DNA of 64,000 bases from Blasia pusilla (taxonomy: Eukaryota), in NCBI GenBank assembly GCA_050084515.1, contig CM114271.1:36394001-36458000 (forward strand), in the 5' to 3' direction. Of this stretch, positions 16,949 to 48,410 are shown one piece after another. Every line of letters begins with the position of its first letter. The first letter of the stretch is position 1. A program made the translations under genes and the position numbers. The notes beneath the pieces were generated by a model. It was not told the DNA's origin and made no database searches. It saw only the letters and a list, made by a program, of their open reading frames with translations.

Positions 16949-17150
16949 CTTGTTTCATCGTTGTTGTGGATCTCAAGTGCTTGCTACTGTTTTGTTTCTC
17001 ATCGGCCTGCAGTGCATCTACCGCACCCGTTTGCGTTTGTTTTGTTCTGGTCAGCATTGTTTCATCGTTGTTTTGGATCTCGAGTGTTTGCTACTGTTTT
17101 GTTTCTCATCGGCCCGTAGTGCATCTACCGCACCCGTTCGCGTTTCTTTT
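16949..17150. repeat. Tandem duplication, ~108-bp unit x2
   Basis: ttgtttcatcgttgtt..ggatctc.agtg.ttgctactgttttgtttctcatcggcc..agtgcatctaccgcacccgtt repeated at ~16949 and ~17057. Confidence 0.85.
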
Positions 17151-19899
17151 GTTCCGTTCATCATTGTGCCTTTAGACTCGTAGCTGTAAGGTACTCCACT
17201 ACCCCAGTTCCGGCTCAGTATGAGCGTGTGATTTCATCTCGTCACTACGCTCCTTCGAGTGTCATAGTCAACATTGTCCGCGAAGAAACTTTGAGCTCAG
17301 CTGTTTAGAGTGTCCTAGACACCCTCAGATTACACTCATTTTCCTTCAAGACCTCGTCCTAGGGTCGTCTGCTGTGAAGCGGCGAAGCACTATCGTCGTC
17401 GGGTTCGAGGGCACGGTGCGGAGCAAGGTGCATAGTTCTCAGCATTCTGTACCGGTAAGGAAATTTCCATTAATTGTTGTCTTTCCCTTTCCCATCCGTC
17501 CCTTCCATCTGTTACACCACATGATTTAGGCTTCGATTTTTCAGTCGATCGTTGTCTCCATGTCATAAGTGCCGTGTTTCGACCTTGATCCTGTGATTTC
17601 CATTTCCGTGTCTGTTCCCTTGCCTTCTTGCCTTCCTTTGGTTTTGGTAGATGCTTTCTAATGTCAGAGTAGACGGACAATGGTTGGGTGGCAGAGGGCT
17701 CTGTCCAAGAACTGTGGTGCACGTCAACAGCAACAGCCCAATCAGGAGCCCCATGATAGACACCATCAAGTTTTGAACGCTTGATGTCGATCCCATTTCC
17801 TGTGACATAGATTTGATTCGTTAGCGTGTGTTGTCAAACAGGGAACCGATTTCGTCGTCGCCGAAGACCTCGACTCCTTCGTATCCACGTGAGCGTTTAC
17901 CCTCATTTGAAGGAGTACCGCACTTCGTTAAGGTGTCGAAACCTCCACCTCCAATTCCAATTTTACAAGGACAGAGACGTCTTAACGCCATTTCAACAAG
18001 ATTGGCCTCTAGTTCAAGAGCTCTGAGCCAACCGAATCCAAACCCACCTCCAAGAAGTCCTGGAAGGCCACTCCCCTGATCTAGAATGCTGAACATGGCT
18101 CAAAATGCCATATTCGTCCGCAATACTGATAATTGACTGCCGCAACTTTAGCTCCTCAAGGAATTTATCCGCTATTGCCTACACACCCGCGTCAGATTAA
18201 TCGGCTCTCGTCCAAGTTTCGCTTCCGCTCTCAGAGAAATAGCTCTCTCTCTCTCAACAGGAAGAGGTACAATTCTCTCCTCTGAAACGCAGAGCGCTCG
18301 AAATGTGTTATCAAACGTTAGACATCGGATAACCTTTCAATCAAAGTCTAATTTGTCGTGTGAAGCATTAAGGTTCATGAGTTCATACTATCGATTTGAA
18401 GGGACAGGTAGAGATTATAAGCTTCGCTGACAGTGTACAACAGGAGGACACTTTCATTGCAAGGCTGATTCGCATTTGGTTCAAAAATTTATCCAATGCC
18501 CTCAATCCCTTCCATTTCCGTGCCTATTCCCCACACTCCTTACTTTCCTTTGGAATGCCGAATCCATTGACAGTCCAAAGATGAGCTTATGTCGCCCGGT
18601 TGAGATGGCTTGAATATTATTGACGCAGAGCTGGGTTGGGAGAGAACTAATTTCCGGTTGGTTGTATGCGTGCATCTAGCTGTCTTCTTGAAGTTTTTCT
18701 TCTTCTCGTGGGTTCTTGCGTCCTCGTTTATCCAAGATTTTTTTTTCTTTCAGCCCTAATTTGAGTCCCCGATGGATTTTCTGAGGTGCCTTCAAAAGAA
18801 TCCAAGCGGTCTACCGTAGTTACTATGTAGGTTTTAAGCTTCAGAGAAAGATGCGTTTGAAGCACTCTTTCAGAAAACTCGTTGTTTTCCCTCTTTCAAC
18901 TGGAGTGCAAGTTGCCTCAAAGTAGGCTATGAGTTCGTAGAAGGACTTCATGTTAGACTGATCGGGATTCTTCAAGTAGTAGATGGTTGAATTTCGACAT
19001 TTGAGCATCGGCTATATGTTACAGTTCTAAGTATACTACTATATGAGATTTATTTGATAAAGACGTAAGGTTCTAGGACCTTGAGTGTGAAGATGGTTAT
19101 TAACTTGGAGACGTGCTATACGAGGATTAGTTTAGCAAACCATTCTGCCACTCTTGCTCTTGAGAAAACTGACAGTAGGATAAGAAAAACCGAATTTTGT
19201 TGCAATAAATCCTTGCATTGTTGCGGCGAATTCATCATGCCTTTCGGTGTCCATCATAGTATTCTCTAAACAGTGAGTATTCGTCTTGGAGTCCTTGTAA
19301 AGCTTCTTTCCCCTGACTGAATGGTTTGTAATCTCTTGCAGCTCTTCAACTCCAGTGAAGTCTCCCTAAAGACTAAACCCAAGGTTTGATTTCCCACTGC
19401 TACTTCAACCTCATTCTTTAAAGCATTTCTGCACTAGCTTTTCATTTACATTAATAACCATCTCATGCTTGAATTTTGTCCTCATTACTCACTCATACCA
19501 TGGTTCAAAGTACAATTAGAAACCTTTTGTATAAGACTAGTCTTCAACGTCCTGTATTTAGTTTCGTCACTCTGACTGTGCACTAGAGTGCGCAATAGAT
19601 ATCATGCTAATGTTCAATGTCATCCCCGAGTAGCTCACTTGGACCTCAAATAAGGACAGGAATAACTCTGTCCAACGAATCCTAAATATCGTGCAGACAA
19701 ATAATCTTGTGACAATTACAACATACTCCCAACTATACACACCATCTCGGTCCTCTCTTTTGTGAAACATCCAGAGTACAAAATGCCTTGGCCACCCAGA
19801 TCTAGGGTTACCAAAAGATCTAATACGGAGGATACGCAACATTTTGGCACCCAATCCTCTTCACTTATAACTTCTTTCTATTGTGTCCCCTCTAATTTC

Positions 19900-25058: not shown

Positions 25059-25546
25059 TAGTTTCAAATTTGAAACTCACGAGTGATTTTGTATAGACAT
25101 AAATAACTATGATAACTAATTTTAATAGCATAGAATGATACAAGGAAAAAAACTTTTGTTAGCATTAGCTTTAGTGTACTAATGAATAAGCAATCTTAGA
25201 AGTCTACTTGCAAAATTTATATTAAAATAGATGTCAACATCGGCCAAATGCTATGTCATACTAACATGATTGATGACTAGGATTATATCTGGTTGTATAT
25301 TTTCTAGGTCAACATAAAAACGTTTTACCGTATAATGTTGCCCGTATGCCATTTTGCCACTAAGAATCCTTTATGACAAGTCCTTTGATATTAGGATTAT
25401 AAATTTTATAATCTAGTGTTATCAATCCTTAAAAACTAGATTTACTATTAAATTTTAGTGGATATGGCCTTAATTTCTTCTAGTGTATAAGAAGAGTTTT
25501 AGGAATCGATACTATTATTTGTGTTAGTTGTCACTTCGACGTAGGT

Positions 25547-28500
25547 TGTCACATTTGAGTAGCTGATAGGTCAAGATCTATCGTGGATAGGGAGTAGGAT
25601 CCAGCGGACTATCTTGAGTGTAACTTTGTCCCACGGTTTCGGATGAGGTTGAGGATAGGTCCATTGTGTCAGGAACGTCGTTTCTGAGAACTTTCCTATT
25701 GAGGTCTTTCACAGCCGGGTGACTTGTTAATCAGGTCACCCGCCACTAGTAACTTGTGCGTGCAGGTTACCAAGGGGATGGCTATTTTTGGGAGAAGAGC
25801 CTTTTGGCTCTTCCCACCACTATATAAGAGAGGAAGATGGCTTTCCTAAGCCATCTTTCTCATGTTGGGCTGTTGGAGCACCTCTCTTGTATGTGTGTGA
25901 GATAGGACTAGGATGCTAGCGTCCGAATTCCTTGATAGCACAGGGTGGATAAGGCTCGATATGTCGATGTAGATTGAAGAGTGGAGTTTTAGGCTAGGTG
26001 TGTCGTTTTTACTACTCTTTATTTTTATATGAGAAAGATACGGGTGCGGGCCATTTTGGATCCCCCCATATGATGTGGTTGGGAGCGCCATGGTTGGCAA
26101 CGTCCCAACGTGGTACACACCGGATGTGGTAGGTATGGACGTGGTTAGTCAGACGGACATAGTGAGGCAAGGTCGACTTGGTAGAGGCGCGGGTAATGTC
26201 GTAGATGGGCTGACATGGTTGAGTTCAGACGGAGTTGAGTAAGATTACGGGATGCGTGTGGGGATGGGCGGAGAGGTTTGCGTGACATGATATTTTTTGG
26301 GCTTGAGTGGGATTTGCGAGTAGGGTTTCACGCTGATCTTGTGGGAGGTTTGACATGTGTGCAAGGAGGTGGTTGTGCTATGGAGGTTGTCATGCCACAC
26401 GTATGGAGTGAGTGTTGAGAGTACGTAGGTTGGAGGGCGTAATCAGGTTACCCATTCGAGTCCCTTTTCCCGCACTTGTCGTGTGTGATTGAGAGTGTTG
26501 GGTATCAGGTAGTAGGTGATGCTAGATGGATGCACTGATGGTGACGAGTGTAGACACTTTTCATGTGTAGCATGTTGGTGGATCTACGGCGGTTGCCGAG
26601 TAGGGGTCGCGTGTATGACTTGAGAGGGTGTCGCTAGGTTAGGTGAGTTAGTTGGGATGCTCATGGTGAGCCCGAGTGTTGAGTGTACGTGAGGTCGGGT
26701 GTGTCATCACGGGATTGACGTTAGCATAGATAAGCTAGTGAGGATTGTGAGAGACTCTCGGTGAGTCTAAGTTCTTGAGCGGGTGAGACAAGGTTGTCAT
26801 CACGGCGTTCTTCCAGGGTTCGAAAGAACAGGGTTGTGCGAGCAGTAGTAGTGGTGTGACACAGAGTGGACTGAGATATCGAAGGGTTACGAGTGAGGAG
26901 CTACCTCGACATCCATCCGTGGCTGAATCATCATAACTAGAGACCGTGTTTGGTGACGAGATCGTAGACGGAGGCAGTATCACTTGGCAGGAGATGGACA
27001 ACATGGGCCATCGAGGATTACGTAGTTTCTCAGGTGCAGTGGGCATCATCGACTTAGATGATTTTATCCAGGAGTTTGACACGTGGTGCAACTTCCAGGA
27101 GATACGAACCCCGACACACTTCAGCCCTTTCATGGCATGGAAGGGGTTGTTCCAGCACTTGGAGGGTCCTCCGATGGATGATTATATGGAGTTTTGATCA
27201 CTTTATTCAGTAGAGATTGATGCCTGGAGGATATATTGGGCTCTACGGTATGTGTCCACTAGTGGTCGCGAGGTATATGATGGGATCATGAGAGGAGAGA
27301 GACCCACCCCATGAGCCCGGAGACTAGATGGAGAGGAGGGCGTGAGGCGATGTGGCGAGAGACCTCTGGTGGTAGAGGGTGGCACAGTGGAGTTCTTCCG
27401 AGCTTGGGGAAGAGCTACAGTATGCACTGTGACAAGTGAAGAGTCTACAAGATTTTTAGCAATGATCGGGTGAGAGTGAGAGAGGCATTCACGCCCATGA
27501 GGAGGTGATCATTTCTATGTATGGAGGAGTGAGGCGTAAGTTAGTCCAAGATTGGATGCGGGGTTCTAGACCGAGAACACAGAGGAGAGTCCAAGATACG
27601 GTGGTCGATTCACAAATGGGCCCACATTGAAGGTGGTCTTTGAGTTGTTAGCGTATTGAGCTCAACATGAGTGTAGGTAGTGACCGCTAGATTTTCTGAG
27701 AGTCGAGACGGGTTGACCCCATAGGTGCCACAACGAGCACCAATACCACGGAGTGGGCCAGTGTGCCTAGAGAGAAGGCGGGTACCGTGAGCCTATGAGG
27801 CAACGGACATATGTTGTGTGGAGGGGTAGGCAGAGAGAGCGCCCACAACATGGGAGAGGACCATGAGCGCCTCGATTGCGAGTGCGGGTGTCTATTGCCA
27901 TAGATATGGTCACACTAGGGATAGATGTTTTGACCTTTGCCAAGAGGCACGCCCAGAGGTAGGCCGAGGGGGGGCGGTCATCTAGAGGAGGTCGGGAGTT
28001 CTTCTTAGGCGTGGTGGTTGTGGGAGATGGAGCAGAGCACCACAACCGACACTTCTCTCACATCGATCGGTTGGTGGGGAGGATTTTGCCATGAAGATGA
28101 TGTCGGGAAAGGCGGAGCCAGCGGCTAGTGTGGCTCTAGCTTCTGGACCGGGTGAGGATCTTGCATTAAACTCGAGGTTGAGGTGGTCGGTGATGACTTG
28201 GGGTGTTGAGAGGCAACCGAGCCCGAGAGGTGGAGTTGAGATCCTACGTTAGGTCATTCACATTGAGCTAGAGTATTTCGCTTGGTTAGTCCGATGGAGA
28301 CAAGATCGGTCGCCCTACTTGATTTGGGGGTGATATTAGGGAAGGCGGCGTGTCTAGCGTTGGGGTTACGGAAGGCCGACATTGAGCCTTGTCCCTTCCA
28401 GATACACACCTCTATTGGGGGTGTATCACCCACGTAGTATATGACTTGAGAGGAGATAGTTGTCAGAGTCCATCCAGAGCGTGCGACCGATAGTGCTATG

Positions 28501-29361
28501 GTACGCACACGTGCGATTACGACACCAGTTGAGTCGTACGATGTGTTGGTGGGGAGTGCATTGTTATATCCCCTAGGATTCATCCTTGACTTATGGGAGG
28601 AGATCGTTTCTTATCGGTCAGGGTGGCGATCAGGTGACGGGCGGATGAGTAAGTTATCCATGCAGTTCGCAAGACGAGGTGGTCGAGCACGAAATGGGTC
28701 TATGACCACGTTGGCAGCTTTCACTTGTAGTGTTAGCTGGCCATGAGAGTTGTTGGAGGGGAACGCACATGCGGAGGATGTTGTAGTAGCGGATAGTCCC
28801 ACGGAGAGACACGCCAAGGCGGGTGTCTCTTCCCATGTTGGCGAGACCTCTTCATCATTGTGGGATACAACTCGAGAGCTACAGAGGAGTGTCGAAGACC
28901 TCGTGAGGCAGGCATGGAGTCATGCCTTTATCCTAGAGCAGCGAGAGTCAAGTGGCAATCGGGCTCCTGGAGTGAAGACGTTGACCCCATTGGATACCAC
29001 ACCCGTTGTGTGGCAGTGTCCAGAGGAGGGTGTTAGGGTGTTAGATCTCATAGGAGGGATTAGCACCGGATTGGCTTAATATAGCAGGCACGCATACGGA
29101 TGCATCAGTACCTTTATATGGAGAGAGATGAGACCACACAATGAGTGTCACTACGTCACGTAGCGAGATTGGTCCAGAGGTATCATGAGTTGTTGTCGGT
29201 ATCTGCAGTATGGGGATATTAGCACACACTACCCGCCAACATCTCTTTGGTGGGGACGTAGTGTCTGGATAGAGTTGGCACCATTCATTTGGTGATTGTT
29301 GGATGGCCATGTCAGGGTCATTCATCAACTGGCCGAGGATTTAGATTGCAGGATCCGAGGT

Positions 29362-29364
<3 letters not shown>
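25547..29364 (+). mobile_element. Degenerate Ty3/Gypsy element, family 2, 5' part: LTR 'B' segment (~25547-26027), gag, protease and start of a DNMT3-like domain
   Basis: LTR segment homologous to 32917-33377. Gag DLDDFIQEFDTWC..LFQHLEGPPMDDY; protease-region YDVLVG; VLDLIGGISTGLA and IVGWPCQGH..LQDPRS. Homologous at protein level to the element at 43365-52643. Confidence 0.85.

Positions 29365-29441
<77 letters not shown>
29365..29441. repeat. (AG)n microsatellite, ~38 units
   Basis: Directly visible. Confidence 0.98.
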
Positions 29442-29444
<3 letters not shown>

Positions 29445-30439
29445 GGCATGTTTGAGATTTTTTGTAAGTAGCCTAAAGTTGGAGAAATCTCCAACGCAAC
29501 CTCCGCACCCTAAATGCGATCAAAGAGTTGTAAACGAAAGACAAGCAAGCTTTCTCCAGAAAAGAGGCACGAATTCGGGCAGGAAGGGAGATGCACATTC
29601 AATGAGGCAGAACTCTTCAATGCCCTACCGTCTCAAGGAGCAAAAGCAACGCAAGGAGGAGGTCGTCTAAGGCATGAGGACTCCAGTTCCCGTGCATTTG
29701 GACACTTAGCACTCAGAGGACTCTAGTTCCATCAAGGGAAGGGAAAAGGGGGTCAGGGAGGGAAGAAGATAAATGAAATTAAATAAAAATATACCTCACA
29801 AGGATAAAGGTTCAAACGGGAAAGGAAGGGGAGGAGGGAGGGGAAGCTTCAAAGAGGAAAGGTTATGAAGACTTATCCTACACAAAAGAATAATGGAGGA
29901 AAGAGAAAGAAAGGAGAGGGAAGGGCATTCTTTCACCAAGGGAATGTTATGTTCATTGCGTATTTTTAAATCTGTCCTCGAACCTCGAACTCCTTGGGAA
30001 AAAATTATCTTGGCTCGCGGCACAAAGGTCCATCTTCTAAAAAAGTTTCATGATGTATGGATCACTAACGGTAAAGTTCCTCCAACATGTAGCATCGAGT
30101 GCTCACTTATAAACATTTCCAACCGTTAAAATCACTTCAACAGTTTCGATCTGAAGCTCGAAATCCTTGGGGAAAAAATGATCCTAACTCTCAACAATGT
30201 GTTGTATCATCTCAAAGAAATTGTATATTTATGGATAACCAGGGAAGAAGTTTTTCCAAAATGAAGCATTCAGACAAAGAACCATGGTCTTCCAACTTTT
30301 TTTCTTGTTGGTGGTGTTAATATTTCCTTTGGTTCTCACTTACAAATTTTTCCAATCGCTGGATGAAGCTGAAACTTTGCAAGAATGGGTATATCACATC
30401 TTCAAATCACTTCAACGGTTCCGGTCTTGTTTCCCCAGA

Positions 30440-31205
30440 TTCAATTTTAATTAGATTTTTTTTTCTACTAGCATCAGCTTCCATTTTTCACTCCCTCCTT
30501 GAAGCTGCATTCACCCTGAATAAATTCACCAAGCCTAGAACCCTAATTTCACATGCCTAGGAGAAGTTTCAGGCTTCATTAGTCCTTAGGACTCCACTTG
30601 TGGCCTCTTATGATGTTGAGTTACTGTTCTTACCGACATCTCCATTGAGTTGTATCTTCCCACCATTGGATGGCCCTCAGACTTTTAGGGTTATGGGAAA
30701 CATGCTTTTGAAGTGTATGGACGATGGTCCTAAATGCCTCCTCCCACCGTTGGATGGAGCTCAACATCTGCTAGGATATGTTTAACACCCTTTTAAACCA
30801 CTTGAACGGTTCCGCTCAGGATTTTCCATTTTCCAATTTGGATTTAAAAATACCAATCATCGGAACCATCTTCTATTTTTTACTCCCTTCTTGGAGCTGC
30901 ATTCACCTTGAAAAAATCCACCAGGCCTCCGGCCCTAATTTTACATTTCCTCGAAAAGTTTCAAGATTTTTGAGTCACAAGGACTCCACTTGTGGCCTCT
31001 TATGATGCCGAGTTACTGTTCTTGGCGACATCTCCAATGGATTGTATCTTCCTACCATTGGATGCTTTGATTTTTCTTTTCCATTTACATTTTGGATTTA
31101 AAATTACCGATCACGAGAATCATCTTCCATTTTTTACTGTGTCCTTGGAGGTGCATTCACCTTGAGAAATTTCATCAAGCCTAAAACCCTAATTTCACAT
31201 GCCAT
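30440..31205. repeat. Imperfect direct repeats (2-3 copies of a ~200-bp block)
   Basis: ggactccacttgtggcctcttatgatg..gagttactgttctt at ~30589 and ~30981; gctgcattcacc.tga..aaatt..cca.gcct...ccctaattt.aca at ~30504, ~30896 and ~31150. Confidence 0.75.
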
Positions 31206-31779
31206 GGGAAAAAAATAATCTAGGGTCTCGGCACTGAGTCCCATCTTTGTGAAAATTTACATAATTTATGGATGTTTGGATATTAGCTTTAATATCTATT
31301 TATGACTAGATTAAACACTACTTATATTGTTAATATTATGTGTTGAAATTATTCCATATTTTTGATGCCCTATTAAGTGATAGAAAATTTACAATATTTA
31401 GTGGATTCCTTTATTAATTATCCAAGGAATTTTTTAATTAATCAATTAATTTTTCATATTTTAATGACATATTTTCATTGTACCTCCTAAGGCTGGTTTT
31501 GTGGGCATATCGATATTTTTTTATTTAATATTTTCCAAATTATATTTTCTAGCATACATGTGTGAGAAAATGACTCAGATCAGTGAATGAGTCACGAGAT
31601 ATGAGTAGAACATGACTAAGTCATTTCTAATACTATTTGAGTTGTTATATTATGAGTGATTTGGTTTTCCAGGTCATAAAAAATGACTGAACCAATAGAG
31701 TTACACTTTGAGTCATTTTGTGCATAAGTCATTCTAAGTCAAGTCATAAAACCATAGTTTTCTTCTAGTGCCTCGGAGC

Positions 31780-33513
31780 AAGTACTCGGGACGTTCCCCA
31801 TTGAGTCATGGCATGCGACGGCGGCAAAGTTGGTAGATTTTCCAGCTCGACGGGCTATAGAGAGAGCCATGATCACACTAATTGTGGTATTGTTGGCTAA
31901 TCGAGTAGGAGTGTTTCGCTTGGTTAGTCCCATAGGTACGGTGTACCACCCGCAACGCGTCCTACTTGATTTGGGAGTGCAACCCTTGATGTTAAGGAAA
32001 GTGGCGTGTTTGGCGTTGGGTTTACAAAAGGGTGACATTGAGCGTTGTCCCTTTCATATACAGACCTCTATTGGGGGCGTATAACCCACGCAGTACATGA
32101 CTCAATAGAAGTTGGTGGTTAGACTTCAGCCAGAGTATGAGTCGGATAGTGCGATGGTGCACACTTGGGAGACTACAACATCGACAGAGTCGTATGATGT
32201 GTTGGTAGGGAGTATAGTGTTATATCCCCTTGGTTTCATTCTGGATTTTTGGGAGAAGATGCTTTCTTATCCGCCAGGGTAGCGATCAGGTGATGGACGG
32301 GTGAGCCATTTACCGGTGCTGTTTGCAGGAGTTAGTGGTGGTTGACCGCATGAGGATACGGTGACCACGTTGGCAGCATTCATAGGTGGTGTTCGCTGAT
32401 CATGAGGGTTTGGGGAGAGGAACACACATGCGGAAGACATTCCCATAGCGAATAGTCCCACGGAGAGACATGCTAGGGTGGATGTCTCTTCCCATGGTGA
32501 AGAGCTTCTTTATTATTTTTGGGGACGAGCGTTGAGATGCGTTGAGTGCAGATGAGCTCGTGAGGCAGGCGTGGAGCCGTGCCAATGTCTAGAGCAGGGT
32601 ACAAGAGTGTAAGATCTCTCCGGAGGGATCAACATGACGGGTTGCTGCAGTGTGGTAGTGTTGGGGGGATGACGGCACCGATGGTGCTAGATGTGTATAG
32701 GATAGTAGATCTTGTCGGGTACATATGTATGTGCTATCTGGAGCTAGGAGGACCCAACTGCCAGATAGAGGGGCGGTTTTGAGACTCGGTGTATATACGT
32801 GAGTATATTTGGTTTATGTGTGGATCTACTCGTATGTTGGGGAAGATCGGTGTTGTGTGTTGTGTAGATGTGACAAGCGATGTGGGTTGTGTAGCAATGT
32901 GTATGCGCACAATAGCTGTCACATCTTATTTCGACATAGATAGAGTTCTATTGCGTCGACGACATAGAGAGTCAGCGGGCTGTTCGGGTGTAACTTTGCC
33001 TCGAGATGTCGGATGAGGTTGGCGACAGGTCTGTTGTGTCGGGAAAATTGTTTATGGAGATTTCCCTATTTTGGTTTTATTCCGTTAGGTGATCTGTTGA
33101 CACATAGGTTGCCGTTGGTAGGGCTATTTTTGGGAGAAGAGCCTTTTGGCTCTTCCCAAGGGTATAAGAGTGAGGAAGATGGCTTTTCCGAGCCATCTTT
33201 CTCATGTTTAGCCTTAGGAGCACCTCTCTTGCATAGATGTGTGTGGGTGTGTAGGAGTTAGGGTGCTAGCATCCGGATTCCCTCATAGCAGTGGGTGGAT
33301 GTGGTTTGATATGCCAATGTAGATTCATGAGTGGAGTTTTAGGTCGGATGAGCCATTTTTACTACTCTTCATTTTAAGTTGTAGGACTCGGTGTATATGC
33401 CTGAGTATATTTGGTTTATGTGTGGATCTATCCCTATGTCGGGGAAAATCAGTGTATTGTGGTGTGTAGATGTGACCAGCGATGTGGGTTGTGTAGCGAT
33501 GTGTATGCGCACA
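31780..33513 (+). mobile_element. Degenerate internally deleted Ty3/Gypsy element, family 2, 3' part: protease region, PHD remnant, PPT, then A-B-A terminal repeats
   Basis: VFRLVSP..RVLLDLGVQPLML (protease region); possible PHD remnant LLQCGS..RHRWC..YICMC at ~32608-32735. PPT GATAGAGGGGCGGT 32764-32777; A 32778-32911, B 32917-33377, A 33380-33513. Confidence 0.8.
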
Positions 33514-34399
33514 ATATAGCTCTTTGCATGTAAAATTCCATAAGTATTAGATGTGGGCATAGGTTCTCTTAGATGAATGTGGAACCCACATGATGATGTA
33601 TGAATATTATTATGTGGATTCCACATTTCAAAATGTGGAACCCACATAATAATAGTTCATGGTGGAAAGCAACGCAAGGGTGGGCAAAACAATAAGGGGG
33701 AAGGGAGTGGAGGTAGGAGGAGGAAGAAACAAGAAAGTGTGGATCATGAAGGGAAGTGAGGAGGATGGGAAAGAAGGGGGAGATGGGGCCCACATGGACA
33801 AGTTCTTCTATAGGACGAACATAAGTCCACGTACATGGACATGTAAGCGTACACGTATGTAGACAGGAATTTTGTCTATATGCAATCTTGTAAATAGATG
33901 TTAGAAGAAATTTTTTTTAATGAATTTCTGAAATTTTTAAAGCTGAACACTTGTAAGTTATAATTTTAGAAAATTGATCCAATTCATTATATCGGCAACA
34001 ATTTCTCTATCATAGAATTTTATGAACATTTTTTGTTCATCATATAAATATGAATTTACACATTCCATAGAATCCCATATAAAAGTTCTTTTATGCTTAT
34101 ATGTATCTTTTGATAGAAAATAGATCATACCATTGATCTTGAAGTGCTAATATGTTTAAAATAATCTTTTTAAATGTATAAGAAAATTGATCATATCATT
34201 ATTATCATCGCTGAGTGCCTCTTTGATTTTCAATCTCCTCTCTGGTTTCACACATAACATTTTTAGAAAATCAAGTCTTGATACATATCCTTGGATAATT
34301 CAGAGTCAGTAATGGGGGCACTCAAGTTAGGGATCAAGGTTGATTTGGGGTAACTCACACCATAGAGACGCCCTTCTCAAAGTGGTCTAGGGCACTTAA

Positions 34400-34725
34400 T
34401 AAAAATGAAGTAAGTTTTTTGCAAGACTCTCAATGTATCGGATGCTTGAAAAGCGCATTGATTGAACTTAATATGTTTGCCATAGAGTCTTGGTACAGTC
34501 AAGCTTTTGCAATAGGGTTTGGGGTTTGGAATTATCCACCATGAACCCCACGTGCATCGCCTGGTAAAGACCGAGCAAGTTTTAGGCAAGAGTATCGATG
34601 TATAGGATGCTTGAAAAGCGCATTGATTACACATAATATGTTTTCCATAGAGCCTTGGTACGATCAAGCTTTTGCAATAGGGTTTGGGGTTTGGAATTAT
34701 CCATCATTAGCCCCATGTGCATCGC
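34400..34725. repeat. Tandem duplication, ~165-bp unit x2
   Basis: ggatgcttgaaaagcgcattgatt...tcaagcttttgcaatagggtttggggtttggaattatcca at 34440 and 34605. Confidence 0.85.
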
Positions 34726-36353: not shown

Positions 36354-36825
36354 GGTAAAGTGAACTCATTCATTCACTGTCATTCATTCTCGCTGAACTT
36401 CATTTATTGCTAGATAGAGTAAGACATGTCTCTGCTTTATGAGTCTACATTGCTTTGAGCTCTATGAACTAAAATACTGAGCTCTATGTAGTTACGGATG
36501 AACATAGGAGGCTCAGTTTTCCCTGAATAAGCGGCCCTTGATGAGATCTCAAGATCAGCTTGCGCGTTCTTGACGTCCCCTACCCTGGTAAAGTGAACTC
36601 AGTCATTCACCGAGCTCTACTGTCATTCATACACGCTGAACTTCATTTATTGCTAGATAGAGTGAGACATGTCTCTGCTTTACAATTCTACATTGCTTTG
36701 AGCTCTATGAACTAAAATACTGAGCTCGGTGTAGTTGCGGATGAACATAGCACGCTCGGTTTGCCCCGATCAAGCGGCCCTTGATGTGATCTCAAGATCA
36801 GCTCCCGCGTTCTTGACGTCCCCTA
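36354..36825. repeat. Tandem duplication, ~233-bp unit x2
   Basis: ggtaaagtgaactca.tcattcac...ttcttgacgtcccctac at 36354 and 36587. Confidence 0.9.
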
Positions 36826-38454
36826 CAGCAGCAACTTTAACGAATTTTCGAGAGCTCCTACACATTCAACGTTCGCTCCATCACCTCCAGAGCTCCTCAC
36901 ATTTCGGGCAGCTTCCGACATCTACAACATCCGAAACAGCAAAGGAGTAGAACGAAAACTACCTAGAGATGGCAACAAGAATCACAGCGAAAAAGTCAAC
37001 ACAAGGGAGAGGAAAGAGTGTGTCCAAGGTAACAAGCTCGAAAAAACATTACGGTGTAAAGTCACCAGATCTCGGAGCATTGGAGAGTACAAAATGGTCT
37101 CCAATAAGTCATGGGGACTGTATGCGCTTGAGCAAATGGAACAAGTTGCACTGTGATGGTCCCACTTGGGGAGAGCCGATCACCCCCGTGCATGCACCGG
37201 GATTTGAGTATGCAATAAAGGACTCCATGCCCGCTGCAGTCCTCCCTACCGATTCCGACAAAGGGTACGATCCGAAGCCAGTTGGAGGAGAGGGAATAGA
37301 TGTTGTAGAGGAGGAAGGGACTCCTCCCTATCACATAAGGAGACCCGGCATAGAAAGGGAACATACCGAGGAGGGAGCCTCTGCTAAGAAGCGGAGAATG
37401 ACCCCCCACACTAACCGAAATCAGCAAAGCTCACCATCCAAGGGAAGGTCCGCGGTAACTCCGTAGTGCACAAAGAAATCCCCACGTAAAGGGCAGAAGG
37501 GGAAAGAAGTTGTAGTGAATATTCAGATCCATATCTGAATTTGGGATCTAGGAGAGGGTGAGCATGCCGATCAGGAGTAGAGTAAATCATTAGTCATGTA
37601 TTGCTTACTTTGAAATGAAAGCGACATAAAAGTTTTTTGAATGTCTCTGCCAACCCCTCTTTCAGTATTCAACTTGAGTACTAACTCCACCCATTTTGCC
37701 CCTACGTGTCCCAGGTGTATATGTGTAATAGGAGAGAAATAGCTTCGGAGACCAATAGCCTGGCTATCAAAAGAGAAACTGTAGCGAAGTGCTAGGGATC
37801 GGTAGCCCGTTGGGCTACCGATCCCTAGCACCCTATCGATCGGGTTGCGCTATGCCGAAAGAATGTACTATCAAACGAGCCCGACCATCAAAAGCACAGT
37901 AGCCAAACTAAATCCCCGAGACCCGATGTGCAATGTTGTGAGAGCCCGACCATGAAGAAATCCCCGAGACCCGATCTGCAAGGTTGTGAGAGCCCGACTG
38001 TCAATAGCACCCGAGTCACACAACTAGCAAGAGAGCCCGACCGTCAAAAATACCCAGAGTCGAACAAGTAGCAAGAGAGCCTAGCAAGATAACCTGAGAG
38101 TTGGAGAGTTAGGGAAAGAAGTCAATCAAGAACACCGAAGAGCAGAACCGGAAAGGGGATGAGCTTGACTGTCACAAAACCAAAACTGACCTTCAATGTG
38201 CAGATCGAGTTTGAAAGGCGATTCTCAGGGGAGATGTTCAACCACCGAGGTGTACAAGCCCGGCACGGACTGGGAGAGGGGGACTGGGACTCGGAAGCGA
38301 ATTGCAAAGCAATTTTGAGTCTGGATAGCTTGCATTCAGATCTCCAAGAGCTGCGGCAGGTTCGCTGCATTCGAAGATATTCCTGAGCGTTCGCCGAAAG
38401 GTACCCGAGTCAAAGCTAGCAAGACAGCCTAGCTCAAAGCCGAAAATGAACATT

Positions 38455-39010
38455 GCAGATCGAGTGCGCTTGAGTGTGCACGAGCCGGGAGGAGGGTGCG
38501 CTGGAGTGCTCGAGCGCGCTTGAGTGCTCGTGTCCGGACGGAGGGGCGCGCTCAAGCGCCCCTGTATAACGCACTGAGAGAGCGGGCGCCTGAGGGATCA
38601 GAGAGGAGGGCGGAGAGAGCTAGCAAGAGAGTAAATCAGCTACCTAGGGAAAGACAGACAAATTCCATCATATGAAAGGTAAGGTGCATAGTACCCAACG
38701 AAAACCCTAAACGAAAATGAGCTGAAAATGAGCCAAAAATGAGCGCACTCGAGCTCGTGCGCTCGAGTGCGCACGAGCCGGGAGGAGTTGGAGTTCTGGA
38801 GCGCACAATCCGGGAGGAGTCGGAGTTCTAGAGTGCTCGAGCCTAGCCGAAAATGAGCCGAAAATGAGCGCACTCGAGCTCGTGCGCTCGAGTGCGCACG
38901 AGCCGGGAGGAGTCGGAGTTCTGGAGTGCTCGAGCGCGCTTGAGTGCTCAAGCGTGCACGAGCCGGACGGAGGGGCTCGCTCAAGCCAGAGAGCAGACGC
39001 ACTCAGAGAG
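38455..39010. repeat. CpG-rich palindromic repeat array (CTCGAGTGCGCACGAGCCGGGAGG-like units)
   Basis: Multiple copies of ctcgagtgcgcacgagccgg(g)agg and aaaatgagc; internal palindromes such as gcgcactcgag...ctcgagtgcgc. Confidence 0.85.
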
Positions 39011-39435
39011 CGGGCGATCCGAGAGGAGGCGGACGGACGAGATTGCAAGGGCGAGCGACTGAGAGTGGGGGTGGGAGTGAAGGGCTTGGACGATTGGGTA
39101 GGGGGGAGGGTGGAGGGGGAAGGGTGTAGGGTGACGGCTCACGGCTCATGCCGTGAGCCGTCAGATGCACCATCTAACGGCCTCTTTTTCCTGGCCGTTA
39201 GATGGGAGAGTGATCAGCCAACGACCCTAGGATTCGAAGGCAGCGCATGCATGGGGGCGGGGCTCGGTTCAGGGCTAGGGTTGGGAATGTTAGGTTAGGG
39301 CCAGGCTCGGCCTATCGAACCTGGGTTTTTTTTAATGAATTTCCTTACAATTTTTTTTAAAATGTAAATTTCTCCTTTTTTACCTTTTTTCCCAATTTTT
39401 TCCCAATTTTTTACAATTTCTAATTTTTGAGAAAA

Positions 39436-39655
39436 TTAAAATAAATCTTCCCCCTTACTCTTCTTCCCTAAATTCTTTTCTTTCCCTAAATTTCATTTTA
39501 TAAATTTCATTTTCTCTTGGTTTTTCTTTCAATTTATAATTTTTATTAAAATAAATCTCCCCCCTTTCTCTTCTTCCCTAAATTCTTTTCTTTCCCTAAA
39601 TTTTATTTTATAAATTTCATATTCTTTTTTTTTCATTCAATTTATAATTTTTAAA
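39436..39655. repeat. AT-rich tandem duplication, ~110-bp unit x2
   Basis: ttaaaataaatct.ccccctt.ctcttcttccctaaattcttttctttccctaaattt repeated. Confidence 0.85.
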
Positions 39656-42700: not shown

Positions 42701-43364
42701 TTAAGAGCGAACATTCATTGGATAATTGTTGGGTTGTACCTTACAATCCGATGTTATGCACCCTATTTGATTGTCACATTAATTTGGAGATTACAAGTAG
42801 TGTTTCTGCTGTCAAGTACTTATACAAATATGTTTATAAAGGATCTGATGTCGTGTCATTTAAGTTGTTAAAGCATATGGATACATCCAATGTAATCAAA
42901 GTTATTGACGAGACAACGTCATATCTTGATGCGAGGTATGATTTTATGGATTGACTTCTCTGATGCATTATATTTTATTTCTCAACTTCATGTAATTATG
43001 GAAGAGTCCTTCTCATGTAATTTCTCACTCAAATACTTGGAATTCTCATTATTCCAGATATATATCTTCTTCGGAAGCATGTTGGCGTCTCTTTAAGTTT
43101 AGTCTACATGTTGAACTTCCAAGTATCGTACGACTAGCAATCCATCTTCCAGAACAACAATTAGTCTACTTCAATGATGTTGACGCTCCTAGAGATATTT
43201 TGCAACTGAAAAGAGAGACAACATTGACCCAATGGTTTGCGACCAATCTATCTGACTCTAGTGCTCGAAAATATCTATACATAGATTTTCCTTTTTATTA
43301 TCGTTGGAGTAACAAGAGATGGATTCGTAGGGTACAAAAACAAAATGGTTGTGGCCATCCCATT
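39800..43364 (+). pseudogene. Helitron RepHel gene, 5' half (Zn-finger, Helitron-like N, HUH Rep domain), intron-containing, frameshifted
   Basis: CPSCRALHW..CCGHG; PQFAQLYIHD; ILPSSFIGGPRHM; FLTMTCNPKW; VEFQKRGLPHVHVL (HUH); YLYKYVYKG (Y2). Cut at ...CGHPI by the Gypsy insertion. Confidence 0.93.
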
Positions 43365-43942
43365 TGTCGTGCGAATCCCCATCGTCATACAACATACATC
43401 GCTGACATACCATACTCACATACATACATAACATAGACGAGAGTATCCACAAACGCAAGTGTACCACAATTGAAACCGTGAAAGACCATGTCATAAAACA
43501 CGTTTACAATCACATACAATCGAGCCAAACCCACTCCACGATGGGAGAATCTAGGTCTAAGCTTATGGAAACACCATAGCCAAGAGCTCTACTCACTACC
43601 AAGGCTAACTCCCAACGCAATGAGGCTCAACTCAAAGAAGTGATCGTTCTTTGAGGGCAAGCCACCTTATATCCTCCAACCTAAGAGCGGGCCCCACTGG
43701 GAAAGTCACCCCAAGTGAGTAACCCACAACCCTATGTATGGAACCGCATCTCTACCAAGCCACTACGGTCCTACATAAGTAATGGCCTCTACCAAAGACT
43801 ATATACTCTACGACATAATCCGTATGGTCATGACAAATTTGTCGGCGAATCCCCATCGTCATACAACATACATCACGACATACCATACTCACATACATAC
43901 ATAACATAGACGCAGAGTATCCACAAACGCAAGTGTACCACA
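43365..43942 (-). repeat. 3' terminal repeat block: A (43942-43840), AATT, B (43835-43471), AT, A (43468-43365)
   Basis: The two A copies (~103 bp) are near-identical; B (~365 bp) matches 52278-52643. PPT AGAAGGGGGCGAGT (43956-43943) abuts the first A. Confidence 0.92.
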
Positions 43943-44120
43943 ACTCGCCCCCTTCTGGCGGTTAGGTCCTCTAACTCCCAAGTAGCCCTATACATCTACT
44001 ACATGCTATACACCTTCTTGGGTGCCCGAATCAGAAGGCCGGGTGCTAGGTTGCCCCATCGTTAGTCGCACATCCGTAATCCATATCATGCAAAGATCAA
44101 GTCATCTACCTCTCCTAAGT

Positions 44121-44257
44121 ACATCGAGGACAAACCCACCTTCCAAAAGAGGAACAACATCCAAACGTGAGTCAAACACATCATGTGCCAACCCCTAGAA
44201 CACCGATCACACACCAACATACGGGTGCGTTACAAGAGACCCACACAACATGCACCT
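44121..44257 (-). pseudogene. PHD finger at the C-terminus of pol (frameshifted)
   Basis: Reconstructed RCMLCG...MLVCDRCSRGWHMMCLT..LDVVP..GRWVCPRC (C4HC3 spacing). Confidence 0.8.
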
Positions 44258-44449
44258 CAAGCTAGCACATATCATGGCTAAGCTTGGGTCAATGAACCAT
44301 CCACATTTGGAAGATGACATGGCGCACAATTACGCACATGGTCCTTCCAAACAACTCCATCACGACCCTCCAACATGAGAACTCCGAAGCTAACACCTCA
44401 CGCACTCGTAAAATAGTGCGGCCTGCCGTCACATCCAACGTTGTCGGGC

Positions 44450-45420
44450 ACCGCTGCAAATAGACATAGTCCCCACATGGAACCTACGAATCGATGGTCG
44501 ATAACCTCCACTTCGAATGGTTGCATACCGCAACCTATCCCTCGTGTTGAGCAATGGCAAGATTCTCAAAGGTCGTTGGTATAACTCTCCGAAAGAGCTC
44601 CGCCCGCGAGAACACACTCTCATCCATATCTCTCGGGTCATCAAGGTCCACCACCTCACTAGACTCGACTAATTGCTCTTTGGCAAGTCCGGATCTCGGC
44701 CGATAACAGTAAAATAAGGTGAGAAGGAAGCCAAGGATGCTTGGCGATCGAACCTATACCCCATGGCTAACCATGGCAACCGAATATCCGGTCTCCAAGA
44801 TGCCCTTCAGAGGCCATACTTGCGCAATGCCCTCTTCACCGCCTGAACCACACGCTCAACCAAACCATCCGCCTCTGGATGATCTCGAGACGTGGTCCGA
44901 TGATCAATCAACGCCTTGTCACACAAGACCTGAAACTCACCCAAACTCAGACTCGGTCGGTCAAGACTTCAATTTGGTGCACCAAAATGACTAAGCACTC
45001 TATCCAGAACGCATACGCCGTTCCTCACTTGCATTGTCCGTAATGCCACCAACTCAATCCACTTGGAGAAGTGCTCCACCATCACCAACACATATCGATG
45101 ATGTCGCATAGTCAATGGTAACGGTCCCCAAAGTCCACACTCCAACGGTAACCCAACCCCATAATAGGCAAGGGGTGTAATTGTGGTATAGGGGCATTAA
45201 ATGATGCCTCACCAGTCACAAACCATACAACGTGACACCAATCGCTGCACCGAGTATGCATGCCACGCCACCAATATCGCCAAGGAGTAAGCTATACGCA
45301 CGCTTTACCCCAAAATGTCCCAACTCCTCATGGGCTTGTCGCACAATGCGCTCTCTCGAGCCAAATGTGGCACTACTCGTACTCTACCATCCTCCCACAT
45401 ACGGAGAATATGTGTTCCCT
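44450..45420 (-). pseudogene. Retroviral-type integrase (frameshifted)
   Basis: Fragments HEELGHFGVKR.YSL, WSVDF.GPLPL..HRYVLVMVEHFSKWIELVAL, DH.TTSRDHPEADG, AQHEDRLRYA. Confidence 0.85.
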
Positions 45421-45699
45421 CCAATCGATACCTCTTAGCACGTTGAAGAACACGGTCTCGCTCCTTGGCACTCACTATGCCTGGCACCCTACTGGTCCGT
45501 AGGAACTCCAACACCAACGCATCATCATGAATATCACGCTGATCCGCACCACCATCTCCAACCTTAGATCAAGGGTCGACCATCTACCCTCGACTAGAGT
45601 AAGATATCATGTGGTCCTCCATACTAGAGTCCACCTAACCAACATAAAAGGCGGATGCATGCCAACCTGGCACCATCTCCTCATCAACCTCGCCATGCC

Positions 45700-46960
45700 A
45701 TCTAGCCCCAGCTTGTATCCTCTTGGCTAGTACATGGGTTCCTACTCAACCCATCAAGATCAAGGTTGGCAACCAGGTCTATGTACCACTTGGAAGTCAT
45801 ACTCTTGTAAGATAAGAGCCCACCGTGCAAGCTTCCCCTGTAAGCTTGTCCGACTCCATCAACCACTTGAGCGGTGGTGATCAAGAATAAGGGTAAATCG
45901 TGTGCCAAACAAGTAACACCTAAAGTGTGCTCTGACCCACACTCTCGCCAAGCACTCTCCCTCATATGAACTATAGCGCGACTCCGTTGCATTATTCGAA
46001 CGACTTGCATAGGCCACCACAAACTCCATGTGCTCATCATCATGTTGTGTCAACACCGCTCCAAGTCCCAACCTACTCCAATCAATGTGTAACTGAAATG
46101 GGCGCCCTCTGATAGGTCTCCTCAAGATAGGCGCCGCCACCAATTGGGCCTTAAGCTCCCCAAAAGCTCTCTCCTGATCATCTCCCCAATGCCACTCTTG
46201 ATCTGATTTCAGCAATTGGTTCAAAGGCTTTGCCATAGCACTAAATCCCTTCACATACCTCCGATAGTAGTTCGCCAATCCCATGAATGCTCGAACTCTA
46301 CTCACATCTACCGGACGCGGAATAAGTGCAATAGCGTCCACCTTTGCTTGCTGAACTCCCAAACCACCTGGATAGATCACATGACCCAAGTACTCAACAT
46401 CCTCATGGAAGAACTTACACTTTCCTGGATGCAAACGTAGACCATGAGCTTTCAACCGCTCAAACACCATCTGCAAATGTATCCGATGCTCCTCCACCGT
46501 GTTATCGAACACCAAGATATCATCAATGTAACACCGAACAAAATCCAACCTTGCTAGGATCCCGCCCATCACTCTTTGAAACTCGGCAGGTGCATTCTTC
46601 AACCCAAAGGGTAAGAATTCCCATTGGTACAAACAATCCTTGCCATGAGAGTTGACACCCCAAAATGTTGTCTTGGCCTTGTCACTCTCCCGAATTGGCA
46701 ATTGATGGTATCCTGCCCGAAGATCCAAAATCTGAAAATCTTTGCCTGTCCCACCACATCAAAGATCTCTCAGTGTAGGCATGGCATACCTATCGGCCTT
46801 AGTTTGCCGATTGATAGGACGGTAATCTCCACACATCCGCCTATCCGTAGTTGCCATGCATATCCTTTTTAGCAGCATGACAAAGGGCGATGCATACTCT
46901 CCATGCGACAACTCCACTAATCCGGCCTCCAAAAGGTCCAACGCCCTACTCAATCAGGTC
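45700..46960 (-). pseudogene. Reverse transcriptase + RNase H (Ty3/Gypsy type)
   Basis: RRMCGDYRPIN, DLRAGYHQL, LPFGLKNAPAEFQR, CYIDDIL, YLGHVI, FQLHIDWS..GLGAVL, YASR..ESRYSSYEGE. Confidence 0.95.
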
Positions 46961-47449
46961 CCTCTCCATATCACTATATTGGTAGGGACGACGGAAGTTT
47001 GGCGTATCACTAGCCAAATCAATCCGTGATATCTGTGGTCCAACCAAAGAACCCAACTCCTTCATGCTAAAGGCAAAACAACTCCTATAAGCACGTAGGA
47101 ACGTGTCAGCGCCGTTTCTCACCTCCCGTAAGCTTGGGCCCAAGTAATGGCTCCCAAGTCTCCTCCACTTTGGCATACTAGAGGGAGAGGACGATGCCAT
47201 TGGCTACACGCAACCCCTCACAAGATGATACACCCTTAGCTACACCATCATCCGAGCAAATAACTCCTCCACCAAAGATGAGCAACCAACTCCACATGCC
47301 CAACCATTACATCCCATTTACTCCAAGGATGCAAAATACTACTCTCTCGCCCCACCGATGCCTCTATCGCCCCGGTAGCCATCGAGCTCATTACAAGGGG
47401 TGGAAGACCTGACATAGTCCGAAGTCGACGTATTTGCTCGGCCATACCA

Positions 47450-48410
47450 AGACTCAAAATCCAAGTCAAACAATTCAGGTCCATGGCCTGACCCAACACA
47501 TGACGTCGTGAAGACTCAGAAATAGAAGCAACCGTTGTCACGCCAGTAGTAAATCCCATCGCACGCTCTCTCTCATCATCAGCGTTAGGCTCCACCAACG
47601 CCGCACATGAGAATCCCATACAAGCCCGGACCACCTTCCCGTAGGCATGACGCGGGAAAACTCACAAATGTGGGTAGTGCCATCCTAGGCTGGCCCACAC
47701 GGTTCACCACTGCCATGGGTGACCGATCAATAACCCTCACCACTTGAGAAAGTCGCCCAGTATCCAAGATACTATCCACTGTAAGGCGAGGATCCCGTTA
47801 ATCGCATCATATGCTCGACGAGAACCTCCCTAGGCAACAAGTTTGTCCACCACAAGCGTGGGCGATGTGCACGCTGAGCCAACTTCGCTGCAGATCCAAC
47901 AACACCTGGTCCAATCCAAGACCGCACCTCATGAACACTCGCCATCATCCGGGTCCGAGTCTCACCTAACAATGGAACATTCTCGAATGTAAGCTAGAGC
48001 ACGTGCTTGATGAGCTCAAGATGTCGTAACACCCGTAACATCTCCCAAAACAATCGAGACCTAGGGTCATGTAATCCCTCACCATGACCAAAGACGTGTA
48101 TGACCGACATGGCCATCCAAAGCAATCACCAAATCCACAGGACCAACCCTCTCAAGGTCCTGCGCTCAACAATGCAATGTGTGATGGTAAAGCACGCTGG
48201 TACCCACAAATAGCCGATGGCGGCAACAACTCAGATATCTCCGCATCAATCGACCAATATGTCGGGATGAGACTCTCGGGCCGTCTCATCTTGCTCCACA
48301 TACACGTATCTCCAAGACAGAATACCGCCCGCACATCTTGCCGCCAAACCGGTGCTAATCCCACCAAAGAGATCTAACACACAAATGCCCTCCGGCGGAT
48401 AACGCCATAC
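47450..48410 (-). pseudogene. DNMT3-like C5 cytosine methyltransferase domain inside pol (frameshifted)
   Basis: Motif I VLDLFGGI; IV DLVIA.GWPC (48107-48118); GL.DPRSRLFWEMLRVL; VI ENV (47976-47984); VIII AHRPRLWWTNLLP; IX/X ERERAMGFTTGVT...RRHVLGQAMDL. Confidence 0.88.

Follow-up and report, generated by a model that had tools for sequence, protein, structure and literature searches.

How does a retrotransposon come to end in a short repeat, a long repeat and the short repeat again, when its other end carries the long repeat only? The question is raised by a 64,000-nt stretch of Blasia pusilla contig CM114271.1 (the window, to whose positions all coordinates refer), which contains elements of two families with this layout, family 1 (F1; 43365–52643, minus strand) and family 2 (F2; 25547–33516, plus strand). 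A preliminary description of F2 had named the short repeat A and the long repeat B, had placed a polypurine tract (PPT) ahead of the A-B-A order at the 3′ end, and had argued that a mechanism is behind it. We refer to the long repeat as L and to the short repeat as S, with x for the spacer between S and L, and j for the joint between L and S. Our analyses give us high confidence that this is how Gypsy retrotransposons with a DNMT3-like methyltransferase (Gypsy-DNMT3) from a streptophyte lineage normally end, both with regard to the identity of the elements and to their architecture.

In F2, self-BLAST of the window aligned the two S copies with 90.2% identity over 132 nt (32783–32914 versus 33385–33516; expectation value E 3.8e-43), and the identity was 88% over the longer span of 32776–32914 versus 33378–33516. 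The purine run AGATAGAGGGGCGG (32763–32776) lies immediately upstream of S1, and the reported repetition of A around B behind a PPT is thereby confirmed. L2 (32917–33377) matched 25780–26025 with 81.3% identity over 257 nt (E 2.2e-50), with a weaker likeness back to about 25602. The 5′ copy at 25547 had been described as B only, and this holds as well: within the window, the S sequence matches only its two 3′ sites, and a local alignment of 25300–26200 with 32700–33600 aligned L alone, with no S upstream of the 5′ L. The dinucleotide GT, which had been noted in front of both A copies, is present at 32776–77 and again at 33378–79, and the simplest interpretation is that the repeat is 1–2 nt longer and extends into the end of the PPT. 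F1 shows the same layout on the minus strand, with 93–94% identity between its L copies and 96% between its S copies.

The two ends of F2 had been taken for the ends of one insertion, and in this point the preliminary description was not confirmed. A protease/pre-methyltransferase segment is present twice in F2, at 28331–28941 and at 31987–32597 (75.5% alike). One partial copy, copy X (25547–29366), contains L1, gag, protease and the start of the methyltransferase, and its collinearity with F1 stops at about 29366; the other, copy Y (31776–33516), restarts in the protease at about 31776 and then leads via 32598–32762 into PPT-S-x-L-j-S, with the methyltransferase, reverse transcriptase (RT), RNase H and integrase deleted. 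The identity of the two L copies is 81% versus 90% for the S copies, and no convincing target-site duplication (TSD) joins the outer ends (AGGT versus ATAT or TAGC, at best three of four positions with the alternative 5′ start at 25529). Because the segment is duplicated, the collinearity is broken, the L copies are less alike than the S copies, and no TSD links the ends, the 5′ and 3′ ends of F2 probably come from two different copies; either end, taken alone, fits the family layout. Copies X and Y are separated by an unrelated, AT-richer stretch of 2.4 kb (29367–31775), in which direct repeats are dispersed (30431–30672, 30823–31064 and 31077–31211; 67–83% alike). The layout in F2 had also been regarded as an independent repeat of that in F1, with an unrelated long terminal repeat (LTR). 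However, the last ~40 nt of S align between the two families (AGCGATGT...TGT...GCAC), and homology is also seen in the termini (TGTCA...), in the PPT block and in the proteins. F1 and F2 are therefore diverged relatives that inherited their common layout and did not acquire it independently.

To what kind of element does the layout belong? F1 encodes, in this order, gag with a CCHC knuckle, protease, a C5 methyltransferase-like domain, RT, RNase H, integrase fragments and a PHD finger, and RT and RNase H match Pfam at E 1e-26 to 1e-28. Related loci were obtained by scanning metagenome contigs with the methyltransferase alignment, which resulted in 80 loci with names such as L003, and such relatives exceed the Pfam cut-offs for rve and PHD (L025), for Integrase_H2C2 and rve (L019), and for DNA_methylase and RVT_1 (L003). 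Single open reading frame (ORF) fragments of the methyltransferase region of the window gave no match in Pfam, and this domain was identified via its relatives: the F1 methyltransferase ORF matches 49 longer proteins, many of them with PF00145, named examples being from Marchantia polymorpha, Calypogeia fissa and Sphagnum. A profile search added Closterium as well as single Marchantia proteins that join PF00145 with RT and RNase H, and the best solved relatives of the methyltransferase profile are DNMT3A, DNMT3B and DNMT3C. Because of the domain order in F1 and the Pfam matches in relatives, F1 and F2 are, by their predicted proteins, elements of the Ty3/Gypsy type in which a DNMT3-like domain has its place between protease and RT. 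The preliminary description, correct as it was about the layout being real, had not recognised this identity. Among the Ty3/Gypsy traits, the pol order of protease, RT, RNase H and integrase (rve) is present, as are a short TSD (4–5 bp) and TG...CA inverted termini (TGTCATG...CACGACA). Two complete paired LTRs, bounded by a primer-binding site (PBS) and a PPT, are absent, the whole S-x-L being found once and only on the 3′ side, and instead of the C-terminal chromodomain of Tf1/Sushi elements, a PHD finger follows the integrase. DIRS/PAT-like tyrosine-recombinase elements were also considered and were dropped because of the integrase motifs and rve matches; a tyrosine recombinase (Phage_integrase) was detected in none of 77 F1 ORF fragments and in none of 14 ORFs of relatives.

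The majority of the 80 related loci contain copies of a family near F1, with L and S 75–83% identical to those of F1. Complete L1-internal-PPT-S1-x-L2-j-S2 copies are present in L019, L025 and L033, the entire 3′ part of the layout in L048 and L074, and in L003 the layout is seen as far as the contig end. A third family, with repeats that are unrelated in sequence (L037:18075–18733), has a G-run PPT, S, GT, L and S, and its S|L joint CATGACA-GT-TGTCATG has perfect 7-nt inverted ends. In total, the layout was found with base-exact joints in 8 copies of three families. For the 5′ ends, we counted unique L copies whose 5′ boundary lies inside the contig, with three rows dropped as duplicate loci, and S was in front of L in none of these 24 copies; neither an ordinary S-L 5′ LTR nor a 5′ L-S-L was found among them. 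S precedes L in six copies, every one of which is a 3′ copy, and correspondingly six of the PPT-preceded S copies, which were counted for the 3′ ends, continue into x and L. A mechanistic origin of the layout, as had been argued initially, is thus favored over decay by its recurrence in F1, in 6 copies at other loci, and in the third family. Ordinary paired LTRs in most intact members, with TSDs at PPT-defined ends, had been named as the case that would speak against such an origin; the census gave 0 of 24 for a 5′ S-L, and the TSDs lie elsewhere.

Besides the full form, there are repeat-less copies (L-internal-S) in L009, L014, L017, L020, L026, L037, L038/L039 (one locus), L042, L052 and L076, which makes 10 unique copies versus 6 of the full form. 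Four more unique S copies have an internal deletion ahead and flank behind. An identical unit in L031 (5531–5819) and L054 (14227–14515) consists of a partial L, 10 nt of the PBS, GCTAG from the PPT block, and S, with an inverted L fragment adjoining; it is the product either of a deletion of almost the whole interior or of a junction in which pieces of PBS and PPT were retained. In L012 (13420–14595), 200-nt repeats around a 779-nt unit were considered as a further S-L-S arrangement, but the tRNA-Met-type PBS TGGTATCAGAGC assigns them to an unrelated element. Three sequencing runs, whose RNA status is a guess, contain contigs over parts of F1 (90–97% alike) that are uninformative on start, end and expression; one such contig spans the S-2nt-L joint, and assembled contigs break at repeat branch points.

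Which ends are integrated can be read from the TSDs. In both copy types, 4-bp duplications sit just outside the L-start (TGTCATGACC...) and the S-end (...CACGACA). Of the 10 copies that could be tested, seven have a perfect duplication (4/4), namely F1 (AATG), L019 (TCTC), L025 (CATA), L017 (TGTT), L026 (TGTG), L042 (ATTA) and L076 (ACTA). L020 and L029 have three of four positions, and L033 is damaged at its 5′ end. Repeat-less copies with both ends inside the contig also have 4-bp TSDs. The L-start (TGTCATG...) and the S-end (...CACGACA) are inverted repeats of one another. Because the duplications lie directly outside these two inversely repeated positions, and not at the ends defined by PPT and PBS, the L-start and the S-end are the ends that get integrated. 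The insertion site of F1 agrees with this. F1 is inserted in a Helitron-like helicase ORF (42996–43364 and 52644–53101, plus strand), and when the element and one CATT are removed, the Helitron ORF reads ...HPIGRLYLTHPG, which matches ...AIGRMYYAHPTSGE of a related Helitron in L003 (6038–6535); the frame of this empty site, ...KRWIRRVQKQNGCGHPIGRLYLTHPG, corresponds to ...KRWIMRKRGFAIGRMYYAHPTSGE of the L003 Helitron. Past the F1 site, at about 52672–52765, there are ~100 nt with GT...AG ends that look intron-like and are without counterpart in the L003 Helitron.

The landmarks of reverse transcription define other ends. A conserved block GGACCYAACYRCCA and a purine run are found directly ahead of S1 in 8/8 motif hits. 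At the other side, an 11-mer that begins 0–3 nt after L1 is complementary to a site 31–32 nt downstream of the TATA inside L. The complementarity is 11/11 in F1, F2, L017 and L055, that site ranks first in 16 of 19 copies, with the other three being decayed, and the pair co-varies between the families (CTCAAAGAACT/AGTTCTTTGAG in F1 versus ATGAGAAAGAT/ATCTTTCTCAT in F2). Visual inspection of the sequence after L1 revealed no tRNA-type PBS, as TGG... is not adjacent, and this predicted self-priming PBS, which would follow the Tf1-type pattern, was adopted instead. Passages of PMC6317226 have self-priming as described for Tf1/Sushi elements and as predicted for the plant element Tcn1. Our elements share with these the lack of a tRNA-type PBS, an 11-nt PBS by the 5′ repeat that complements the predicted first transcript bases, and a TSD of 4–5 bp, but differ in their split repeats and PHD finger from the ordinary paired LTRs and the chromodomain of Tf1/Sushi elements. 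With the PPT next to S1 and the predicted self-priming PBS next to L1, the LTR in the sense of reverse transcription (U3-R-U5) is S-x-L, with U3 starting at the S-start and U5 ending at the L-end. As the TSD-flanked ends differ from these PPT/PBS-defined ends, the integrated copy is most likely circularly permuted in comparison with the expected reverse transcript, with S absent on the left and present behind j on the right. The integrated replication-type copy thus has the order TSD, L1, PBS, gag, protease, methyltransferase, RT, RNase H, integrase, PHD finger, PPT, S1, x, L2, j, S2, TSD. Shortly before the primer-like 11-mer, the PBS sequence occurs once more within L (CTCAAAGAAC-AGTC-AGTTCTTTGAG; 52465–52441, minus strand), so that L contains a hairpin with the PBS sequence as its first arm; the analogue in F2 is imperfect (25830–25863, plus strand). 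The hairpin might act in the promoter, in RNA folding or, in the 3′ L, as another site for priming.

The layout is the DIRS-like arrangement that is already in print for KnitGypsy-Dnmt3 of Klebsormidium nitens. As far as literature searches reach, the only printed account of Gypsy elements with DIRS-like ends is a single section on Klebsormidium together with a figure legend, in which the repeat structure is called 'the same as that of a DIRS retrotransposon', with the order A-coding region-B-A-B for DIRS, and no mechanism is given (de Mendoza et al. 2018, Nat Commun 9:1341; PMC5890265). By that account, KnitGypsy-Dnmt3 and our elements have in common the Gypsy domain set, the DNMT3-type methyltransferase inside pol, the A-coding-B-A-B repeats, and a streptophyte host, but the host here is bryophyte-like, with the closest protein relatives in Marchantia, Calypogeia and Sphagnum. 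One sentence of a 2026 preprint has 'streptophytes (Gypsy-DNMT3)'. Beyond these two sources, we found no description of a bryophyte Gypsy-DNMT3 element and no mechanism in the literature covered, to which subscription journals and supplements did not belong. TSDs at permuted ends, the palindromic S|L joint, the predicted self-priming PBS and the repeat-less copies are absent from the text of PMC5890265 as far as it was accessible. Our data add members in a bryophyte-type genome to the known Gypsy-DNMT3 elements with DIRS-like architecture, and the mechanism that we discuss below is meant as a proposal. PAT-like and Ngaro elements, which belong to the DIRS order, have split direct repeats, given in the relevant passages of PMC7192593 as A1-internal-B1-A2-B2, and their internal junction puts both outer ends side by side, which is thought to help in restoring the ends. 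The terminal repeat order and the presence of split direct repeats are the same in our elements; however, PAT-like and Ngaro elements encode a tyrosine recombinase and not a DDE integrase (rve). Their methyltransferase is furthermore described in PMC5890265 as Dam-like and N6-adenine-specific, whereas a C5 DNMT3-like enzyme is encoded here. A further difference lies in the 4-bp TSDs of our elements. To our knowledge, elements of the DIRS order do not generate target duplications on integration.

How could such a permuted copy arise? The two internal joints are informative in this respect. At the S1|x|L2 joint, the integrase ends meet as a near-palindrome, with GACA-GC-TGTC in 5/8 copies (the GC spacer of F2 included), GACA-AT-TGTC in L019, AC as spacer in L033, and GACA-AATT-TGTC in F1. 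The joint j is G, which is the last PPT base, in L025, L033 and L048, A in F1 and L074, and AAG, followed by T, in F2; in L019 it consists of a 17-nt filler of local sequence and CGAG from the PPT end, and more variants of j were seen in contigs of other genomic copies. With PPT-end bases (G, CGAG, GT) and filler, j looks like an LTR-LTR junction of the circle type. The preliminary description had interpreted the GT as a 2-LTR circle junction, which gains from the 1–4 PPT-end bases at the L|S2 joint and from the filler in L019, and the circle as an intermediate stays a supposition. We consider it settled that the layout is real and non-random, and its interpretation as a circle junction plausible and partly supported. 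The likeness to junctions of 2-LTR circles or to circle junctions of insertion sequence (IS) elements includes the abutted inverted ends (CA-spacer-TG) and their palindrome as well as a junction with PPT-derived bases and filler. The difference is that the palindrome (S|x|L) here lies inside the LTR, and that the junction-type L|j|S is retained in the integrated copy. Retroviral 2-LTR circles are regarded as dead ends, and we know of integrase cleavage of a palindromic circle junction from in-vitro work only.

In the route that we propose, an ordinary reverse transcript S-x-L-PBS-internal-PPT-S-x-L would be made, and its two cDNA ends would be joined, L-end to S-start, to form j, either as a 2-LTR circle or by an end-to-end template switch. 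The integrase would then open the joined molecule at the palindromic S|x|L in the PBS-side LTR, and insertion with a staggered cut would result in the circularly permuted L...S-x-L-j-S copy. Such a copy could serve as master, as its 3′ S-x-L would give U3 and R to a transcript that starts in L1. Repeat-less copies might form when the integrase pairs the L-start of the left LTR with the S-end of the right LTR, in a linear cDNA or a 1-LTR circle, or by later recombination between S1 and S2; without a 3′ R and the 5′ part of L, they should be unable to regenerate themselves. That the ends are joined and then cut at x is a tentative reading, to which we give not quite an even chance. The more specific idea, that a DDE integrase of the Ty3/Gypsy lineage bypasses the PPT/PBS ends and opens end-joined cDNA in an IS-like manner at an internal palindromic att-like S|x|L, is possible but would surprise us less by being wrong than by being right. 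As a separate observation on x, the flank past S2 of F2 (33514–33521, ATATAGCT) is like the bases past S1 (32912–32918; ATAGCT, comprising x and the first L base), and the flank past S2 of F1 (AATG) resembles the x of F1 (AATT); this likeness could be due to chance, to target preference, or be a trace of the opening step.

Several observations weigh against the explanation as we have outlined it. The circle or end-joining step is derived from the look of j, and from this alone, and as j = G is common to three copies, j may have been inherited. Random use of the two equal S|x|L sites of a 2-LTR circle predicts equal numbers of L-j-S-x-L-internal-S copies, but this alternative permutation was seen in none of the 24 5′ ends, versus 6 copies of the observed form (8 with the two of the window). 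Its absence demands a directional step, or a faster collapse of that form via its longer L repeats. At the 3′ end, S passes straight into flank in 11 rows (10 unique, of 16 S copies preceded by the PPT), and the full form is in the minority. The integrase fragments of F1 have E 2e-4 (Integrase_H2C2) and 4e-3 (rve), both under the Pfam cut-offs, and decay is seen in every copy examined, with no ORF longer than 493 amino acids. Klebsormidium proteins, finally, are not among the 119 profile-search hits, in which Closterium is the sole charophyte, and a common descent with KnitGypsy-Dnmt3 is putative. With these points considered, the Gypsy-DNMT3 layout together with the proposed route is, in our view, likely to be the best overall explanation.

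A rival explanation does without end joining and assumes a templated restoration in the style of DIRS elements; a restoration of this kind has been suggested for DIRS, PAT and Ngaro elements with their internal complementary region and split direct repeats. The RNA would run from the L1 start through S1-x-L2-j into S2, template switches onto the internal S1-x-L2 would restore the missing 5′ part of L1 and 3′ part of S2, and a linear L...S cDNA would be integrated by the DDE integrase. The repeat layout is identical to the split direct repeats of tyrosine-recombinase retrotransposons, as these are depicted in the pertinent parts of PMC7192593 and PMC5890265, the restoration would account for the single permutation (the alternative being found at 0/24 5′ ends) and for the same j in three copies, and a linear DNA with inverted TG...CA ends is a natural integrase substrate. 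However, with the PBS after L1 and the PPT before S1, one would expect an ordinary S-x-L...S-x-L product and no copying of S2, there is no evident primer site past S2, where host flank is found, and the L019 joint with its filler, like the varied j in general, looks newly made and not templated. We regard this templated restoration as rather unlikely, although it deserves to be kept in mind.

Far less probable is a second alternative, according to which L-internal-S is the basic unit, and L2-j-S2 is a separate, deleted mini-copy (L-j-S) that was inserted or co-integrated at the S end. L-internal-S with perfect TSDs does represent most 3′ ends, and the L-PBS(10 nt)-GCTAG-S unit of L031/L054 exemplifies an almost complete internal deletion, but a second insertion requires a spacer that corresponds to the outer 4-bp TSD, and x has 2 nt, is GC in 5/8 copies and differs from that TSD; moreover, judged from the positions of PBS, PPT and TATA, an L-internal-S unit has neither the 3′ R nor the 5′ part of L and could not remake its promoter part. 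A chance origin in both families, by rearrangement of ordinary LTR elements after insertion (through unequal recombination, through tandem solo LTRs or because the 5′ A was lost), is extremely improbable, as the base-exact joints and the same layout in 8 copies of three families, the TSDs directly outside L-start and S-end, the agreeing Helitron empty site, and the complete lack of the ordinary form at the 24 5′ ends all contradict it, even though both window copies are old and decayed and F2 is clearly rearranged, with two partial copies and unrelated 2.4 kb between them.

With regard to the route of joined ends and internal cutting, our data add constraints to any mechanism: the integrase ends and TSDs are at the S|L boundary inside the LTR, the PPT and the predicted self-priming PBS set a different, ordinary LTR, the L|S joint is circle-like, and repeat-less copies exist alongside the full form. 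It has thereby become a testable question whether joined-end cDNA can be productively integrated by a DDE integrase. If this is true, each replication-competent insertion would be a circular permutation of its reverse transcript, 'dead-end' LTR circles would be productive, and the split repeats of DIRS, PAT and Ngaro elements would have been reached convergently by an integrase-based route. LTR finders that expect paired LTRs will miss or mis-annotate the lineage in bryophyte and charophyte genomes.

Table 1. Positions of the repeats, joints, priming landmarks and coding remnants of the two families in the window.
Family	Feature	Position	Strand	Remarks
F1	L1	52278–52643	−	starts TGTCATGACC at 52643; TATA at 52481
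F1	primer-like AGTTCTTTGAG	52451–52441	−	within L1
F1	putative self-priming PBS CTCAAAGAACT	52267–52277	−	directly after L1; 11/11 match, reached in 0/200 shuffles
F1	gag remnant, CCHC knuckle	49659–51044	−	
F1	DNMT3-like C5 methyltransferase remnant	47278–48845	−	motifs by eye: DLFGGISTG, GWPCRSY, FENV, QRAHRPR
F1	RT and RNase H	45401–47160	−	Pfam RVT_1, RT_RNaseH
F1	integrase (H2C2, rve; fragmentary) and C-terminal PHD finger	44112–45383	−	integrase below Pfam cut-offs
F1	PPT AGAAGGGGGCGAG	43944–43956	−	
F1	S1	43840–43943	−	
F1	spacer x, AATT	43836–43839	−	with neighbours, 12-nt palindrome GACAAATTTGTC
F1	L2	43471–43835	−	
F1	joint j, A	43470	−	
F1	S2	43469–43365	−	ends CACGACA
F1	TSD, AATG (element strand)	43361–43364; second copy 52644–52647		
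F2	L1 (copy X, 5′ copy)	25547–26025	+	possible 18-nt terminal duplication from 25529; TATA at 25821
F2	primer-like 11-mer ATCTTTCTCAT	25853–25863	+	within L1, 32 nt after TATA
F2	putative self-priming PBS ATGAGAAAGAT	26029–26039	+	3 nt after L1; 11/11 complementary to 25853–25863; equalled in 1/200 shuffles
F2	copy X coding remnant	26994–29366	+	gag, protease, N-terminal DNMT3-like part; motif I VLDLIGGISTGLA at ~29040
F2	copy Y segment, protease/pre-methyltransferase	31776–32525	+	75% like that of copy X
F2	PPT AGATAGAGGGGCGG	32763–32776	+	conserved block GGACCCAACTGCCA ahead of purine run
F2	S1	32777–32914	+	A of the preliminary description
F2	spacer x, GC	32915–32916	+	between S-end and L-start
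F2	L2	32917–33375	+	begins TGTCAC
F2	joint j, AAG	33376–33378	+	its G equals the base that ends the PPT, and the T that follows equals the base that starts S
F2	S2	33379–33516	+	followed by flank

Some minor observations concern the composition of the elements and of the window. S is rich in TGTA/TGTAT, with four TGTA in the 105 nt of F1 S2 (43365–43469), and a role of these motifs past L2 as polyadenylation enhancers is speculation only. The composition was measured on 43365–52643, 25547–29330 and 31750–33513, and on the elements of L017, L019, L025 and L033. In each copy, the sense strand is G+T-rich (GC skew +0.23 to +0.30, AT skew −0.06 to −0.16) and CpG is depleted (observed/expected 0.53–0.77), and this bias is family-wide and not an oddity of one copy. 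Short tandem duplications elsewhere in the window are unrelated to the elements; they are located at 16950–17167, 34409–34725, 36376–36826, 38720–38926, 39435–39653 and 63262–63750, with units of 82–225 nt that are 88–96% alike.

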